Sequence record: PQ429079.1
DNA: 45,476 nucleotides
Strand: one strand, 5' to 3'
Source of the DNA: Escherichia phage vB_VIPECOTPH05A
Made by a program: the position numbers and the translations under genes
Notes under the pieces: model-generated
Seen by the model: only the letters and a program-made list of their open reading frames with translations
What the model was told of the DNA's origin: nothing
The model's database searches: none
Shown: positions 1 through 41,166 of the stretch, in pieces
How positions within the stretch are numbered: position 1 is the first letter of the stretch
Layout of the letters: each line of letters starts with the position of its first letter

Positions 1-585
1 TCATTCCTCTACCTCACCCATGTTCGTTGTTACAATTTTACCTACAGGCTCCGCAACACTGAAAATAATCTCAGTCGGTGCCGTTTCTTCGGCGGATTCA
101 ACTGGTTTCTCTTTGCCAAGGCCAAGTTTCGCAGCGGCAAACGTAGCAGAGATACCTGCGGCCCCTGTCTCAGTGAAGTATGCCTCTTCCAATGCCTGTG
201 CTGTCTCATAGGCTTCGGCAAATGCGGGAATCTCACGCAGCCACAGCTTAATAATCGGGATAGTGACGCCGATGTGTAGGGCGAAGCGGGCCAGTGACGG
301 TGGCTTATCCTGAATCAGCGGGCGTTCGTCACCCTTAGACGTGGGCGCAAGTTCCCATGACGTGCGGTCGAAGAACTCGATTAACGCGTCGCAATAGTCC
401 GGGTCCCACAACGCGGCGGAATTACGGGACGATTGATAAAGGCTCTGTTTACCGCGCGGTCGTTTACGGCGACGGTTTGCGCTAACAGCTTCTTCATGTG
501 CAGCTTGCACCACCTCTGGCGATGGCTGCTTGAGTTTCAGCTTCATAGAATCCCCTTGCGTATGCGTCTGACCATCAGAGCGCAT
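1..585 (-). CDS. terS: terminase small subunit (putative)
   Basis: 194-aa ORF whose TGA stop sits at positions 1-3 and overlaps (ATGA) the start of the large-terminase ORF running off the other window edge; HTH-like segment PSLARFALHIGVTIPIIKLW; likely true start at internal Met (546..544) preceded by AAGGGGA RBS. Confidence 0.6.
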   Translation of the reverse strand: MRSDGQTHTQGDSMKLKLKQPSPEVVQAAHEEAVSANRRRKRPRGKQSLYQSSRNSAALWDPDYCDALIEFFDRTSWELAPTSKGDERPLIQDKPPSLARFALHIGVTIPIIKLWLREIPAFAEAYETAQALEEAYFTETGAAGISATFAAAKLGLGKEKPVESAEETAPTEIIFSVAEPVGKIVTTNMGEVEE

Positions 586-2562: not shown

Positions 2563-2655
2563 TCAACGGCCTTTCAACCCGTCAAAGCATCCCCAGAAGG
2601 CCCCAACCACCGCGCCAGCACCGATAGCCAATAAGATGAAATCAATCTCTGTCAT
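2563..2655 (-). CDS. 30-aa hydrophobic peptide (possible lysis accessory)
   Basis: MTEIDFILLAIGAGAVVGAFWGCFDGLKGR; start overlaps endolysin stop (ATGA); below ORF-track size cutoff. Confidence 0.3.
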   Translation of the reverse strand: MTEIDFILLAIGAGAVVGAFWGCFDGLKGR

Positions 2656-3137
2656 TTAACAGCCCTCCCGATAGCAACCGCCTCTTGCCACGGTTTACCG
2701 TCGAACAGTGCCAGACGCCCGGCGGTACGTCGGCGCAGTCCAAGTAACGGTTTACCATTCTGGTTGATGAACAGTGCCAGCTTAGCCCGTAGCGTCTGCG
2801 CATCACCAGCGCGCAGCGCCTTACCCGTTCCGGTAGTAGCTGCGATTACGCCAGCGCCCGCGTTAAACACCAGGTCGCACACCGCATCGAACTGACCCTG
2901 CGTCAGCGAGTGATGCGCTGCGGCGTCAACGGCAGATACGGCCTTAGCCATGTCACGATTGAGTAACAGGAGGCCCTGACCTGGCGTGATGGTCTGCCCT
3001 GGCTTAACATCAGCACCGTAATGCCCGTAGCCTATAGTCAGGTACTTCTCGTCCGGCGTAGCGCGATACGCAGTTCCGCGGAAGCCCTCGAACGCAGCGC
3101 AGAAATGCAGTCCATTATCTGAAATATTTCGAGACAC
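2652..3137 (-). CDS. endolysin, GH24 (T4/lambda-type) lysozyme
   Basis: catalytic pattern E..D..T in FEGFRGTAYRATPDEKYLTIGYGHY; likely GTG start at 3137 with GGAGG RBS 8 nt upstream; ORF track gives 2652..3188. Confidence 0.8.
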   Translation of the reverse strand: MSRNISDNGLHFCAAFEGFRGTAYRATPDEKYLTIGYGHYGADVKPGQTITPGQGLLLLNRDMAKAVSAVDAAAHHSLTQGQFDAVCDLVFNAGAGVIAATTGTGKALRAGDAQTLRAKLALFINQNGKPLLGLRRRTAGRLALFDGKPWQEAVAIGRAVK

Positions 3138-3387
3138 GCTTATGTCCTCCGTACGACAGCCACGCCTGACGAATCTGGCGCAGCGCAACTAATGTGATTA
3201 ATGTCTCAGGCAACGCAGGCGACATGCTGCCCTGTAACAGGTGGATACATCCGGCGGCGCAAACGATAGCTGTCAGGATATAGAGCACCCGACCAAATAG
3301 CCCGTCGTCCACACTGGGGTGGTATACGTTAAACAGCGATGCGCCCTCAATTGCGAGCATACCGCCAAACCAGAATAATTCATTCAT
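3115..3387 (-). CDS. holin/antiholin-like membrane protein
   Basis: ORF 3115..3480; start MNELFWFGGMLAIEG at 3387 with GGAGGTGG RBS; two hydrophobic segments; overlaps both neighbours. Confidence 0.5.
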   Translation of the reverse strand: MNELFWFGGMLAIEGASLFNVYHPSVDDGLFGRVLYILTAIVCAAGCIHLLQGSMSPALPETLITLVALRQIRQAWLSYGGHKRVSKYFR

Positions 3388-3688
3388 TACCACCTCCGCG
3401 ACGTGCGATGTATTCTCCGGCGACAATGCCAGAGAGACGGGAATAAATCGGCATCCAGAGAATAGCAATGATGAACCCAAGGCCTGCTATTTCGCGTTCA
3501 CCTGCGATACCGAACCATTGAGCGGCAAGAGGTGCACCGAATACGGCGCACGCAAATCCAGTGGCGAGAAAACAGAGAGCATCGACAGGACCAGTAATAG
3601 TGGCTTTGTGTTGTCGTAAGCCTATTACCCCGCCAGCTAGTGAGGCAGCCAGAAGCCAGCCCGTCACTGTTTCAGTAAATTTATCCAA
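3380..3688 (-). CDS. holin-like membrane protein
   Basis: 102 aa with three hydrophobic helices (WLLAASLAGGVIGL, FLATGFACAVFGAPLAA, GLGFIIAILWMPIY); immediately upstream of endolysin. Confidence 0.55.
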   Translation of the reverse strand: MDKFTETVTGWLLAASLAGGVIGLRQHKATITGPVDALCFLATGFACAVFGAPLAAQWFGIAGEREIAGLGFIIAILWMPIYSRLSGIVAGEYIARRGGGNE

Positions 3689-6102: not shown

Positions 6103-6271
6103 AGTCAATTACCCCGAACTCGTTGATGATTTGCGCCTTGTAGAAGTTGCCGTTTGATGCCAGGTGATACGCCTGCGCCATAGTCATCTCGCGATAAGTT
6201 GCTGCGCTGTTTTCGAATTCCATAACCATCAAAGTAACCATCTTCTGTCTCTCCTCTCGTTTGTGTAAATG

Positions 6272-6300
6272 AATAGTAGCCTATTCTATCTTAGTGTGCA
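6272..6300 (-). promoter_or_regulatory. sigma70-like promoter (TTGCAC-N17-TACTAT)
   Basis: -35 at 6295-6300 and -10 at 6272-6277 on minus strand, followed by conserved leader AACGAGAGGAGAGACAGAAG-ATG. Confidence 0.5.
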
Positions 6301-7826: not shown

Positions 7827-7851
7827 TCATCTGTCTCGTTTCGATAAGTGA

Positions 7852-7880
7852 ATAGTATCCTATTATGTTGGGGCGTGCAA
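7852..7880 (-). promoter_or_regulatory. sigma70-like promoter (TTGCAC-N17-TACTAT), leftward
   Basis: -35 at 7875-7880 and -10 at 7852-7857 on minus strand. Confidence 0.5.
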
Positions 7881-11271: not shown

Positions 11272-11335
11272 GCCAGTTACTCCTTAGTTAGTTGATATGT
11301 GAATAGTACCATATTAATTATTTTAGAAAAGCCCA

Positions 11336-31258: not shown

Positions 31259-31287
31259 TTGCACACCCCAATATAATAGGGTACTAT
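31259..31287 (+). promoter_or_regulatory. sigma70-like promoter (TTGCAC-N17-TACTAT) for opposite-strand island
   Basis: drives plus-strand genes from 31316 inside the minus-strand tail operon. Confidence 0.5.
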
Positions 31288-31315
31288 TCACCCGTAACTT
31301 ACTGAGGAAACAATT

Positions 31316-37855: not shown

Positions 37856-37889
37856 CTTAGTAAAAGAAAAGAGGGACCGAAGTCCCTCT
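37856..37889 (-). terminator. rho-independent terminator downstream of capsid gene
   Basis: stem AGAGGGAC/GTCCCTCT followed on minus strand by UUUCUUUUAC. Confidence 0.6.
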
Positions 37890-37905
37890 CGATTATAGCT
37901 TAACC

Positions 37906-38955
37906 TTAAGCACCGACACCAGTTACCAGGAAGGCAATCGGTACATGCTTACGCTCAACAACGCGGTTCCAGTTGGAGGCGTTCGCCAGGTCCTGCCATG
38001 AAGCAGAACGTGCGACGGTCTCGGTGCCGTTACCGGTGATTACTGCGCTGGTAAAGCTGTAGCCCAGTGGGTGCAGCAACCAGGTCTTACGGGTCCACAG
38101 GGTTTCTACCCCACCGCCGTTGCCGCGAGACGCTTCGCGCTCGTATTCCAACGGGTTGGACGGAGAACCTTCACCGTAACCGATAGCGCCGTTACCGAAG
38201 ATAATGGAGATGAACTTACGGCTAGAGTCGGTGCTGACTACGGTCATGCTGTCGTCAACAATCACGCGGTAACCCTGGTAGGTGGCGAACAGTGTGTCGT
38301 TGTCGGCGTCTTTGATGAAGTCAATAAGCTGCTGCTTACGGGCCTGCGCATAAACGAAGCTGTGCATCGCGATAGCACCCAGCACTTCTCCGCCGTTGCC
38401 CATCAGCGCATCACCCATAGTCTGGGTGGCGTCGATGAACGCACCTGCGTCGAAGCCCAGAGTAGCAGACACGTCTACAACCATGTCATTCTGCTCGTGG
38501 TATGCGTCGGTAGCGGCTACGTTGTCATTGTACAGACCGAGCGCGGTAGCGATCAGACGGCGTTGCGCCTGGCGCTGCCAGAAGTTATCCAGACGGGACG
38601 CTACGGATTGCAGCGGGTTCTGGCTGGTCAGTTCGACAGTCAGGTCCGCCTGGCCAAAACCTTCGTTCAGGTATGCAACGCGCGCCATCATCTCGCCGGT
38701 TTGCACGTTACGCGGGGTAGCGATGTCCTGGTATACGTCGTTCGAGTAGTTAGGCTCGATAGAAGTATCAATCGCTTTCCAGAAAGGAATGTTAGCGACG
38801 TTGGACGGGCCGCGGGCAATCTCGGCGGCGTACGGAGTAGGGGTAAGAATACCGGACTGGAAGAACGCGGTTTTTTCTACCGGGTCCTCGGTCATATAAG
38901 ACGCCAGGACCGGGATGTTGCCAGTTACGATATCGCCGATAGTGGTAATTGCCAT
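37906..38955 (-). CDS. major capsid protein
   Basis: 349-aa protein immediately after the scaffold gene and followed by a strong terminator. Confidence 0.7.
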   Translation of the reverse strand: MAITTIGDIVTGNIPVLASYMTEDPVEKTAFFQSGILTPTPYAAEIARGPSNVANIPFWKAIDTSIEPNYSNDVYQDIATPRNVQTGEMMARVAYLNEGFGQADLTVELTSQNPLQSVASRLDNFWQRQAQRRLIATALGLYNDNVAATDAYHEQNDMVVDVSATLGFDAGAFIDATQTMGDALMGNGGEVLGAIAMHSFVYAQARKQQLIDFIKDADNDTLFATYQGYRVIVDDSMTVVSTDSSRKFISIIFGNGAIGYGEGSPSNPLEYEREASRGNGGGVETLWTRKTWLLHPLGYSFTSAVITGNGTETVARSASWQDLANASNWNRVVERKHVPIAFLVTGVGA

Positions 38956-38957
38956 TA

Positions 38958-39659
38958 TTATTTCCTCAGGGCTTTAAGTTGCCGTTCAAATTCGGCAGGG
39001 TTCGATTTATACAGAGCTAAACGCTCCGCTTCACTCATGTCTTTAAACGCTGGTGCGGCCCCGCCGCCTTTGCCACCGGAAGCCCCGCCGCCGGAAGCTG
39101 CATTTGCTTTAATCAAATGCGAAAACGCTTTGTGTTCGCGCAGGTATTTGCGGAACTGTTCAGGGTCAGTCGTGATTACACCGCCGTCTGGCCCAACAAA
39201 CTTAGTAACCACATCATCACCTTCGAACTCAGTCTTAACGAACGGAGCAAGAATGTCTACTGCTTCCGGGGTAATAAAGTCACCTGCGAAAGAGCCTAAC
39301 ACCGCTTTACGTTCGCTGCCGAGGATGCGCTCAGCCATTTTGGTTATGCGACCATCTTTCTCGGCTAACACCGGGTCATACTGGCTACGAATCGTCTTTT
39401 CGAACTCGTCCATCTTGCCGGCGGCTTTTAGCGCCTCCTGGTGCGCACGCTGACGTTCCTCTTCGGCCTCTTTTGCTTTACGGGCGGCTTCTTTCTTCTC
39501 CGCCAGCAATGCTTCCTGATTGGCCTTAAGTCCGGCAACTTCTTTCTCAATCATCGCCTGAACTTCTTCAGCGGTGAACATTTTTGGAGCGTCGCCACCG
39601 CTAGATTTATCTTCTGCCCCAGCTTCTTCCTGGAACGGATAGTGTAAAAAACGATTCAT
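38958..39659 (-). CDS. scaffolding protein
   Basis: ORF 38958..39713; likely start MNRFLHY at 39659; long Ala/Glu/Lys coiled-coil and Gly-rich C-terminus. Confidence 0.6.
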   Translation of the reverse strand: MNRFLHYPFQEEAGAEDKSSGGDAPKMFTAEEVQAMIEKEVAGLKANQEALLAEKKEAARKAKEAEEERQRAHQEALKAAGKMDEFEKTIRSQYDPVLAEKDGRITKMAERILGSERKAVLGSFAGDFITPEAVDILAPFVKTEFEGDDVVTKFVGPDGGVITTDPEQFRKYLREHKAFSHLIKANAASGGGASGGKGGGAAPAFKDMSEAERLALYKSNPAEFERQLKALRK

Positions 39660-39741
39660 AGTCAGTATGTCCCCTGGACGTTGGAATCCGGGCCTCCCGG
39701 ATTTACATGTCAAGAATAAATTATTCCAACATGCAAGGCAA

Positions 39742-40005
39742 CTATTCCAGAATATTCCTCACGTAATCCTGCAACATGAACACTTTCAGTCTCAGTTGCC
39801 GTACACATTCGGCGTTCTGAACGTCGATAGCTAAATCCTCGTCTGCGTCGCTACTTGGCAGTGCCAGTTTGCACGGCGGCTGCATCATCGGCATACCCGG
39901 GGATGGAATTGGCGTTTGCGACGGCGCGGGACTTGAGCTGCACCCGCTCAGGGTCAAAAGTGCACACGCTGCGGCCAGGCGTTTTAATGTACTTAACGAC
40001 TTCAC
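39742..40005 (-). CDS. outer-membrane spanin lipoprotein (Rz1-like)
   Basis: lipobox LTLSGC, Pro-rich mature region; overlaps Rz-like gene in another frame. Confidence 0.6.
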   Translation of the reverse strand: MKSLSTLKRLAAACALLTLSGCSSSPAPSQTPIPSPGMPMMQPPCKLALPSSDADEDLAIDVQNAECVRQLRLKVFMLQDYVRNILE

Positions 40006-40237
40006 GGGTTATCACCTCTGATTTCGTTTTGCCTTCGTTGTCAGCGGCGGCGGCCTTTGATTCATCCTGCTGCTGCCGTTGTGTTTTCTTCGCGAACTCA
40101 GCCTGTGCTTTCTGCTGTTGCTGCGAAACGAGATTAGCACGGCCTTCACCCCAGCCGCTGCGGTATTGATAGATGCCGTGTGCGTAGGCCAGGACGACGA
40201 AACATGCTCCGGCTACGACAGTTGCTTTAAGATTCAT
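39851..40237 (-). CDS. inner-membrane spanin (Rz-like)
   Basis: N-terminal TMD ATVVAGACFVVLAYA followed by Gln/Ala/Lys-rich predicted helix. Confidence 0.6.
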   Translation of the reverse strand: MNLKATVVAGACFVVLAYAHGIYQYRSGWGEGRANLVSQQQQKAQAEFAKKTQRQQQDESKAAAADNEGKTKSEVITREVVKYIKTPGRSVCTFDPERVQLKSRAVANANSIPGYADDAAAVQTGTAK

Positions 40238-40488
40238 GTTTCCCCTTTCTCGATAAGTAAAGCCCCGCCTTAAAGCGGGGCGCTAGTCCTTATCATTTAA
40301 ACATAGAAACGGCGTAATCTCAGTAAACCAGTTACTTTTTACACAAGCAATAGAGTATGGCCCTTCCGAACGCGTCAGCGTAACTACACTCAGGACTTAC
40401 GTCCCGCTCCGTTACCTGCCCGCGCCGCGGTCGCTTGTTCATACTTCACAAGCTCAGGTGGAGCTTATCATATTTTCAGTGAAAAGTC

Positions 40489-40504
40489 AACTATTCGAAT
40501 AGTT
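40489..40504. promoter_or_regulatory. perfect 16-bp palindrome AACTATTCGAATAGTT (operator-like)
   Basis: exact inverted repeat about 55 bp upstream of promoter at 40557; half-site ACTATTC recurs in -10/start regions of other promoters. Confidence 0.45.
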
Positions 40505-40556
40505 TATTCCAACGTTTACAATTGAGTGGAATAACTGGAATACGTAAATAAATAGT

Positions 40557-40585
40557 TTGCGCGCACCAACATAATAGGGTACTAT
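40557..40585 (+). promoter_or_regulatory. sigma70-like promoter (TTGCGC-N17-TACTAT)
   Basis: same -10/start context (GGGTACTATTCA) as promoter at 31259. Confidence 0.5.
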
Positions 40586-40612
40586 TCAGTTAACTTAAAC
40601 AGGAGATGAGAA

Positions 40613-41134
40613 ATGATTACTACAGTAATTACTTTCCCTGCGTATGTAGGGGCGAAAATATGCAGGGCTAAAAATGATGTGCGCTACTATTTGAACGCTT
40701 TTTACATAGACCCTGAAGGATTGATAGTGTCTACGGACGGTCATAGATTGTTCTGCGACAATGTGAAGACCAACGTTGAGAAAGGGACTCTCATAGACAT
40801 CAAAGGGAGAGAGCCTTCTAAATTTAACTACGCGGAGGTAAACCACGACAACGGCAGTGTATCTTTCTATGACGATAATCGTGCGCTTATATGTACACTT
40901 CCGGTAGATGTTGTAGAAGGAAACTTTCCTGACTGGAGACGCGTGGTGCACATCACACCGGGTGTTGTCGATAGTATAGGGTTCACTCTGCGCTATTTGG
41001 CAGACGCGTACAAGATTTCTAAGGCATACAAAAATGAAATTGCTCGTTTCGATTTCCAGGACCAAACCAGAGGATGCAAAATACAATTTTCAAACACGGC
41101 CTTTATGGTGTTAATGCCCGCGCGATTTAAATAA
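40613..41134 (+). CDS. hypothetical protein (opposite-strand moron)
   Basis: 173-aa ORF with AGGAG RBS, own promoter and terminator; possible PD-(D/E)XK-like pattern STDGHRL...IDIKGRE (weak). Confidence 0.55.
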   Translation: MITTVITFPAYVGAKICRAKNDVRYYLNAFYIDPEGLIVSTDGHRLFCDNVKTNVEKGTLIDIKGREPSKFNYAEVNHDNGSVSFYDDNRALICTLPVDVVEGNFPDWRRVVHITPGVVDSIGFTLRYLADAYKISKAYKNEIARFDFQDQTRGCKIQFSNTAFMVLMPARFK

Positions 41135-41137
41135 AAC

Positions 41138-41166
41138 TAAGGCCCCATATGGGGCCTTTTATCATT
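41138..41166. terminator. bidirectional rho-independent terminator
   Basis: stem AAGGCCCC/GGGGCCTT with T4 run. Confidence 0.7.

Follow-up and report, generated by a model that had tools for sequence, protein, structure and literature searches.

A predicted Jersey-family spanin pair among the head genes of a Kagunavirus-like coliphage, and the conserved putative control region that precedes it

Introduction

The closest described relatives of the gene pair examined here form the overlapped "Jersey" spanin family, which Kongari et al. defined in 2018 from 27 phages, including Jersey, SETP3, K1G, K1H and K1ind1-3 (BMC Bioinformatics 19:326, PMC6139136). In phage Jersey itself the two spanin genes overlap by 155 bp, and the invariant o-spanin cysteines of the family occupy positions 45 and 67. 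For the i-spanin of the family, the same authors predict two helices with a linker containing two strands between them (PMC6139136). The genome paper of phage Schulenberg reported a spanin pair that is genetically separate from the holin, antiholin and endolysin genes (PMC6763661), and unlinked spanins are also known from T4 (PMC6139136). Assignment of the Jersey family in the literature is itself bioinformatic (PMC6139136, PMC6763661), and our literature search retrieved no experiment on it.

Other known systems are arranged differently. In lambda, Rz1 is wholly embedded in Rz, and both genes directly follow S and R on a single late transcript. The T4 genes PseT.3 and PseT.2 belong to the separated (non-overlapping) class and lie away from the holin (t) and endolysin (e) genes (Kongari et al., PMC6139136), whereas the overlapped LysB and LysC genes of P2 are located inside the lysis cassette.

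A first-pass annotation made from the letters of a coliphage genome had proposed an Rz/Rz1-type spanin pair within the head gene cluster, far from the holin and endolysin genes. We analysed this locus and its surroundings. With a probability of roughly 0.9, positions 39742-40237 encode a two-component spanin of the Jersey family, its function being assigned by inference. Both the spanin pair and the split lysis layout are already known, since they have been annotated and published.

Genome context of the spanin locus

The window, i.e., the whole 45,476-nt stretch of DNA that was analysed, is the complete closed genome (~45.5 kb, opened arbitrarily) of a Kagunavirus-like (Guernseyvirinae) coliphage. 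The gene coding for the terminase large subunit spans the window ends, starting at 4..2 (-) and continuing from the other end; the genome is therefore closed and can be measured around the circle. A query of 2.3 kb spanning the spanin locus matched 483 phage records, the best of which were vB_EcoS_fPoEco01 (97.9%) and Ivi (97.8%), followed by fFiEco02, Snoke and Schulenburg (96.2%). These best-matching Escherichia phages are ~44-kb siphophages of the Kagunavirus/Guernseyvirinae group, and the locus is 96-98% identical to its counterparts in fPoEco01, Ivi, Snoke and Schulenburg. Comparisons among relatives were carried out on 48 related contigs from IMG/VR. The genes surrounding the pair and the lysis genes are the following.

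37906-38955: capsid gene
38958-39659: scaffold gene, next to the spanin pair
40613-41134, plus strand: clamp-like gene, 173 aa
Beyond the hairpin at 41139-41158, which separates it from the clamp-like gene: Hoc-like gene, 462 bp
2652..3688, minus strand: holin, second holin/antiholin and endolysin, ~7.9 kb upstream of the spanins around the circle and on the same strand
3380-3688 and 3115-3387, minus strand: the two holins (PHROG holin families, E = 7.7e-29 and 3.1e-32)
2652-3137, minus strand: endolysin (PHROG, E = 5.5e-44; Pfam Phage_lysozyme, E = 1.1e-27)

The neighbours named in the first-pass annotation were borne out, the spanin pair lying between the scaffold gene (38958-39659) and the clamp-like gene (40613-41134), and the distance of about 8 kb that it gave between the spanins and the holin and endolysin genes agrees with the ~7.9 kb measured on the closed genome.

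Databases conflict on the name of the clamp-like gene (40613-41134, plus strand), RusA-like resolvase in one case and sliding clamp/beta-clamp domain in the other. Its product matches PHROG 3007 (RusA-like resolvase, E = 1.7e-36), PHROG 947 (E = 2.4e-9) and, over residues 19-112, NCBIfam dnaN (E = 1e-4); Pfam matches fall below the cut-off, and GenBank records name it sliding clamp/beta-clamp domain. The gene is oriented opposite to the spanin genes and was found in only 9 of the 48 relatives. From one relative to another, the Hoc-like start and the i-spanin start are 776 to 1579 bp apart; the interval between the Hoc-like gene and the spanins is a variable insertion spot. In relatives devoid of an inserted gene, a hairpin with a T run closes the Hoc-like gene, and the conserved region comes directly next. 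A repeated element of ~32 bp, TTGCGCGCACCAACATAATAGGGTACTATTCA (read toward the downstream gene), occurs at 40557-40588 (plus strand), 7849-7880, 31268-31290, 11300-11316 and 6270-6285. The element is sigma-70 promoter-like, with a spacer that is conserved, and the copy located before the clamp-like gene is predicted to drive that gene.

Architecture of the gene pair

The locus comprises two genes read in different frames of the minus strand.

39851..40237, minus strand: i-spanin gene, 128 aa, ATG start, RBS AAGGGG, with Cys12 and Cys92 (ORF list and its translation)
40169..40225, minus strand: i-spanin TM segment, residues 5-23, Kyte-Doolittle 19-residue maximum 1.69 (ATVVAGACFVVLAYAHGIY)
39742..40005, minus strand: o-spanin gene, coding for a lipoprotein precursor of 87 aa, read from a GTG start in the +1 frame with respect to the i-spanin gene
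39940..39951, minus strand: lipobox L-S-G-C, residues 19-22, Cys22 being the predicted lipidated first mature residue
39851..40005, minus strand: dual-coding overlap of 155 bp, encoding the i-spanin C-terminus together with the o-spanin signal peptide and Pro-rich linker

Residues 5-23 are the sole hydrophobic segment of the i-spanin in the Kyte-Doolittle profile, as for a protein with a single N-terminal membrane helix. A single-sequence AlphaFold model of this protein (mean pLDDT 56.5) contains one helix, residues 3-62, within which the TM segment lies; residues 68-128 have a pLDDT < 50 and are without confident structure in this model.

The GTG start of the o-spanin gene is preceded by a strong RBS, GAGGTGAT. 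The signal peptide, MKSLSTLKRLAAACALLTLSG, is directly followed by the lipobox cysteine, and the mature protein begins with CSSS, i.e., with Ser and not Asp at position +2. Its mature part of 66 aa contains 9 Pro in the N-terminal half, which form a Pro-rich linker, as well as Cys45 and Cys67. According to a six-frame lipobox scan, this is the only credible lipoprotein ORF of the genome, and the scan returned no other lipoprotein or unimolecular-spanin candidate. Three other lipobox candidates were poor: a 38-aa ORF inside a tail gene, an antisense ORF and an internal start inside a holin gene. A narrow lipobox pattern leaves out the LNGC found in Jerseyviruses, which is taken in by a broader pattern with any uncharged residue at -2.

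Both genes of the first-pass annotation were recovered, the inner-membrane spanin-like gene with an N-terminal TMD at 39851-40237 (minus strand; hydropathy peaking at 1.69 over residues 5-23) and the out-of-frame, Pro-rich lipoprotein gene at 39742-40005 (minus strand; lipobox LSGC, Cys22, 9 Pro). Of the helical periplasmic domain that it had also described, the AlphaFold model shows a helix as far as residue 62. Lipoprotein and TM prediction, which it had put forward as a check, detected the LSGC lipobox and one N-terminal membrane segment.

Family assignment and comparison with known spanins

The i-spanin matches PHROG 2536 (E = 8.4e-55) and the o-spanin matches PHROG 5672 (E = 2.5e-30) and PHROG 1267 (E = 1.1e-18), all of which are Rz-like spanin families. 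GenBank annotates the first gene as i-spanin in phages Ivi, Snoke and Schulenburg and the second as o-spanin in the records of near-identical phages, in which the genes measure 387 and 264 bp and overlap by 155 bp, the same lengths as here. A homologue is present in 665 phage records, many of them naming it spanin. By tblastn, the spanin of SETP3 is 61% identical and those of Kagunavirus-type coliphages, some named spanin, are 90-96% identical; many Guernseyvirinae records label one or both genes "hypothetical protein".

A Pfam search at E <= 1 matched neither protein to the lambda Rz or Rz1 families (Phage_lysis, Rz1), the best hits being DUF2514 (E = 0.022) and DUF6491 (E = 0.14), both below cut-off, and NCBIfam P2_Rz1 scored 16.7 bits against the o-spanin for a cut-off of 27. 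Since no curated Pfam or NCBIfam family exceeds its cut-off for either protein, family membership rests on the PHROGs, the GenBank annotation and the literature. The same three sources (Rz-like PHROG families, i-spanin/o-spanin annotation and published Jersey family membership) uphold the spanin reading of the first-pass annotation. Its qualifier "Rz/Rz1-type" applies to the architecture and the presumed function; it does not extend to the families, for want of a lambda Rz/Rz1 Pfam match, nor to the gene arrangement, which is overlapped and not embedded as in lambda.

The pair shares with the Jersey family its gene order, +1 frame, 155-bp overlap, o-spanin Cys45 and Cys67, host group and phage subfamily. 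We found no substantive difference, and the pair constitutes one more member of this family. The lipobox is LSGC here, while LSAC or MLASC is found in most close relatives. With the spanins of Schulenberg/Schulenburg (QEG06797 and QEG06798; MK931438; PMC6763661), for which the 2.3-kb region is 96.2% identical and the neighbours are shared, there are only point differences. The likeness to lambda Rz/Rz1 consists of an N-terminally anchored inner-membrane protein encoded with a small Pro-rich outer-membrane lipoprotein in the +1 frame, of periplasmic Cys residues and, by analogy, of a presumed role in outer-membrane disruption, although the genes are overlapped here. T4 PseT.3/PseT.2 share the remoteness from the lysis genes but are unrelated in sequence and do not overlap. 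P2 LysB/LysC share the overlapped architecture, and the o-spanin has weak similarity to NCBIfam P2_Rz1, albeit under the family cut-off; unlike the pair described here, the P2 genes reside within a lysis cassette.

Conservation of the split layout

All 48 contigs present the same order, namely Hoc-like decoration gene, variable gap, i-spanin, o-spanin, scaffold and capsid, save that no capsid gene was detected in a few contigs whose scaffold is divergent. Relative spacing is conserved as well: the o-spanin start lies at +232 in nearly all contigs and the scaffold start at +578 to +580 in most. Wherever the contigs reach far enough, the holins and endolysin are encoded on the same strand, 7.6-10 kb upstream. 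This layout is shared by Serratia phage Tsm2, and in Dhillonvirus Over9000 (one genome) the spanin pair is located between a head-morphogenesis gene and the scaffold/major-head genes. Position conservation in relatives, another check suggested by the first-pass annotation, was thus found in 48/48 contigs, and the separation from the holin and endolysin genes that it had pointed out is real and conserved. Genetic linkage to these genes, which is absent here (7.9 kb), is usual but not required for two-component spanins, as T4 illustrates. The split layout is real, old and conserved; it is not new.

Both ORFs, the lipobox Cys and the other Cys residues are maintained in 48/48 contigs, with i-spanin identity going down to 61%; i-spanin Cys92 and o-spanin Cys45 and Cys67 are retained. 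Lipobox variants among these loci are LSAC, LSGC, MLASC (shifted by one residue) and LNGC. Two lipobox registers are found among loci L014-L031, ...LLTLSAC (Cys22) and ...LSTMLASC (Cys23), with the same mature length and the same Cys45 and Cys67.

A differing spanin allele was detected in one Kagunavirus-like contig (L037, 10001-10700) whose flanks are 92-98% identical to the window. It encodes an i-spanin of 118 aa and an o-spanin of 81 aa with the lipobox ITGC, the overlap being of just 14 bp, and is similar to the near-separated FSL_SP-031 type that Kongari et al. discuss (PMC6139136). This suggests a cassette replacement inside a conserved frame. More generally, among loci L002-L048 the spanins diverge much faster (61-73% identity between the coliphage and Salmonella-phage types) than the scaffold (87-89%) and the capsid (89-93%). 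The non-coding leader just upstream of the spanins is 95-99% identical in many of the same phages with diverged spanins.

Proposed function of the spanin pair

While gene structure, targeting signals, dual coding, family and position were observed, spanin function is what we infer for the pair. By analogy with lambda Rz/Rz1, the N-terminal helix of the 128-aa i-spanin would anchor this protein in the inner membrane, the remainder extending into the periplasm. The 87-aa o-spanin would be exported, lipidated at Cys22 and, because it bears Ser and not Asp at position +2, sorted to the outer membrane. The two proteins would then join across the periplasm in a complex probably stabilised by homotypic disulfides involving Cys92 of the i-spanin and Cys45/Cys67 of the o-spanin. 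Such complexes would build up harmlessly in late infection because the peptidoglycan mesh would keep them apart. Lysis would be completed when, after the holins (3115-3688) have let out the endolysin (2652-3137) and the wall has been degraded, the complexes fuse or disrupt the outer membrane.

The layout of this genome counts against the proposed function inasmuch as the spanins are not adjacent to the holin and endolysin genes and their local context therefore lends no support. The unmatched lambda Rz/Rz1 families in Pfam, the P2_Rz1 score under its cut-off and the low-confidence model of the C-terminal half of the i-spanin also weigh against it. A more telling context was found in Klebsiella phage Kp4865-4 (L051, 2214-3460), an unannotated record in which four genes in a row make up a full canonical lysis cassette. 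The first encodes a P21-type holin (Pfam, E = 5.8e-34) and the second a lysozyme (Pfam, E = 6.4e-47) with a hydrophobic N-terminal segment, a predicted SAR endolysin. The third, directly after it, encodes an i-spanin homologue (39% identity, E = 2e-24) and is overlapped by the gene of an o-spanin homologue with its own lipobox (45% identity, E = 1e-18). The Kp4865-4 cassette provides the strongest independent support for spanin function.

It could be argued that the pair is instead an envelope system, e.g., for superinfection exclusion or receptor masking in the manner of T5 Llp or Cor, outer-membrane disruption being achieved by something else or not needed. Such a role would suit genes that are located among head genes and not with the lysis genes, and the literature we searched contains no functional test of the family. 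Yet a membrane-anchored periplasmic protein obligately paired with an overlapping lipoprotein gene is a signature of spanins, homologues of both subunits occur in the canonical holin-endolysin cassette of Kp4865-4, and the genome offers no other spanin candidate despite its Gram-negative host and its holin-endolysin system. We consequently hold an envelope function to be very unlikely.

Slightly less probable still is an added role in head assembly or packaging, the two proteins being partly structural or morphogenetic. The position between a head-decoration/head-morphogenesis gene and the scaffold gene is invariant in 48/48 loci, and one Dhillonvirus genome presents a comparable position. However, shared late transcription alone can explain a conserved gene order, the export and membrane signals on both products misfit a cytoplasmic head assembly, and the same family is also found outside head clusters. 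We thus retain the two-component spanin as the function of the pair.

Coding capacity of the two overlapping frames

Nucleotide diversity was compared between codon positions in 39 distinct relatives. In the part encoding only the i-spanin, third positions exhibit a diversity of 0.243 against 0.087-0.112 at the other positions. In the part encoding only the o-spanin, third positions reach 0.243 against 0.029-0.085, second positions (0.029) being nearly invariant. Within the 155-bp overlap, the third position of the i-spanin frame is the most variable. Third positions being the most variable in each gene's own non-overlapped frame, both frames are real coding sequence, and we regard both ORFs as genuine. 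That the out-of-frame lipoprotein ORF arose by chance in and after a single real gene, as its GTG start and the abundance of short overlapping ORFs in a mechanical ORF list might insinuate, is effectively refuted by the strong RBS GAGGTGAT, the persistence of the ORF, its lipobox and its two Cys in 48/48 loci, the codon-position diversity of the o-spanin-only part (0.029 at second and 0.243 at third positions), the PHROG match (E = 2.5e-30) and the homology to the Kp4865-4 o-spanin (E = 1e-18).

Transcription units and candidate signals

Putative transcription signals flank the stretch that runs from the spanins to the capsid gene.

41139..41158, bidirectional: terminator-like hairpin in the interval from the Hoc-like to the clamp-like gene, setting the spanin block apart from the upstream late genes
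40462..40490, minus strand: promoter-like site TTGACT - 17 nt - (TGn)TAAGCT, oriented toward the spanin, scaffold and capsid genes, read from conservation
37869..37890, minus strand: strong terminator-like hairpin downstream of the capsid gene, where the spanin-scaffold-capsid unit probably ends

The promoter-like site is conserved across Kagunavirus-type loci, and Jerseyvirus loci have T(A/T)GACT - 17 - TACGCT at the same place. In the sigma-70 scan, the site at 40462-40490 falls below the threshold because its -10 hexamer, TAAGCT, matches at 3/6 positions. The spanins are probably at the front of their own late unit, made up of the promoter-like site, a structured leader, the spanin, scaffold and capsid genes and the hairpin at 37869-37890, and this unit would probably be separate from the one carrying the holin and endolysin genes. 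The division of the lysis genes between two transcription units, as proposed in the first-pass annotation, accordingly fits the predicted signals, together with the opposite orientation of the clamp-like gene, and keeps the status of a prediction.

Directly downstream of the endolysin gene, the minus strand of 2336-2585 contains two strong sigma-70-like sites, TTGACG-17-TATAAT with TG (11/12) and TTGACT-17-TATATT. Their presence suggests that the lysis cassette ends one unit and that a new one starts before the terminase genes.

A conserved putative control region upstream of the spanins

The ~310 nt that precede the i-spanin gene are 95-99.7% identical in 170-odd phage records, including phages whose i-spanin protein is only 73% identical. 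On the minus strand, this region contains in order GGAATA/TATTCC repeats with a palindrome, the promoter-like site, a GC-rich element and a hairpin; a further hairpin follows the spanin genes.

40350..40461, minus strand: structured leader element (small hairpin and long three-part hairpin, ACCG...CGGAAGG), matched by a covariance model (R1)
40262..40281, minus strand: GC-rich hairpin ~20 nt upstream of the i-spanin RBS, terminator-like here, with the tail TTTACTTAT
39685..39703, minus strand: hairpin in the intercistronic stretch that separates the o-spanin stop from the scaffold RBS, without a T tail

GGAATA/TATTCC repeats lie at 40462-40550 and 39714-39760, with a perfect palindrome, CTATTCGAATAG, by the TTGACT-17-TAAGCT site. 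The repeats are conserved in Jerseyvirus loci, and a further copy of GTTGGAATAA immediately precedes a TTGACA located between the o-spanin and scaffold genes. A longer repeated motif, GGAATANNCTGGAATA, was rejected since just one exact copy exists, but the shorter 7-mer TATTCCA/TGGAATA does cluster, 5 of its 11 genome copies being found within 820 bp (39722-40542). The repeats and the palindrome may be a candidate binding site for a phage-encoded DNA-binding regulator.

The covariance model of the GC-rich element was built from 12 sequences with a hand-derived structure. It yields one match per genome, at 110-143 bits in Kagunavirus-type loci and 38-44 bits (E about 1e-9) in Jerseyvirus-type loci, and no second match in the window. 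The model gave no leader match in Tsm2, TS6, SE1, Kp4865-4 or a Dhillonvirus; inspection by eye shows structured leaders of another kind in TS6 and Tsm2. In the model-based alignment, which is fitted to the model and thus favours the structure, 97.9% of the cells of the 28 base pairs are paired and 15/28 pairs have changed on both sides. When the partners were slid by 1-3 columns as a control, 28-41% of the cells were paired and the covariation score, 0.278 for the unslid pairs, did not exceed 0.046. Compensating changes are also legible directly in the raw sequences, and the long hairpin recurs in the unconstrained single-sequence MFE fold (z = -2.9). When both phage groups were aligned with plain MAFFT, RNAalifold retrieved the outer helix only, the inner helices requiring model-based realignment. 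Searches of Rfam (E <= 1) and with ARAGORN returned nothing in or near the locus, leader included.

Both hairpins outside the leader element vary in a compensated manner. The stem at 40262-40281 occurs as GCCCCGC, GCCCTGC, GCCCGGC or GCCCGAC, each with a matching change in the other arm, and is followed in Jerseyviruses by a non-T tail, TTAGCGTATAAAG. At 39685-39703, the arms read AATCCGGG/CCCGGATT in this genome and ACACCGGG/CCCGGTGT in Jerseyvirus-type loci, both sides having changed; this hairpin may be an mRNA processing or stabilising element.

The succession of a promoter, a ~200-nt leader, a terminator-like hairpin and late genes recalls the lambda pR'-6S RNA-tR' order. By this likeness, the leader could act in antitermination, in RNase processing/mRNA stabilisation or in translational control. 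Possible roles of the elements of this region include processing or stabilisation sites, an attenuator/antitermination module and a regulator binding site. Taken together, these sequence features lead us to propose, tentatively and at somewhat less than even odds, that the spanin, scaffold and capsid genes of Kagunaviruses and Jerseyviruses constitute a separate late operon preceded by an undescribed regulatory module consisting of the repeats, the promoter-like site with its weak -10, the ~110-nt leader and the hairpin.

Conclusions

The gene pair is one further member of a spanin family that was catalogued in 2018 and is annotated in hundreds of records. Its description is useful for the annotation of the Guernseyvirinae records that still bear "hypothetical protein" labels. 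The novel content lies in the putative control region rather than in the spanin pair, and this upstream region is the sole part of the locus that might repay more work, being the better target for studies of late-gene control in a widely used group of therapeutic phages. If the proposed module is real, the leader could set the dose and timing of the spanins independently of the holin and endolysin.
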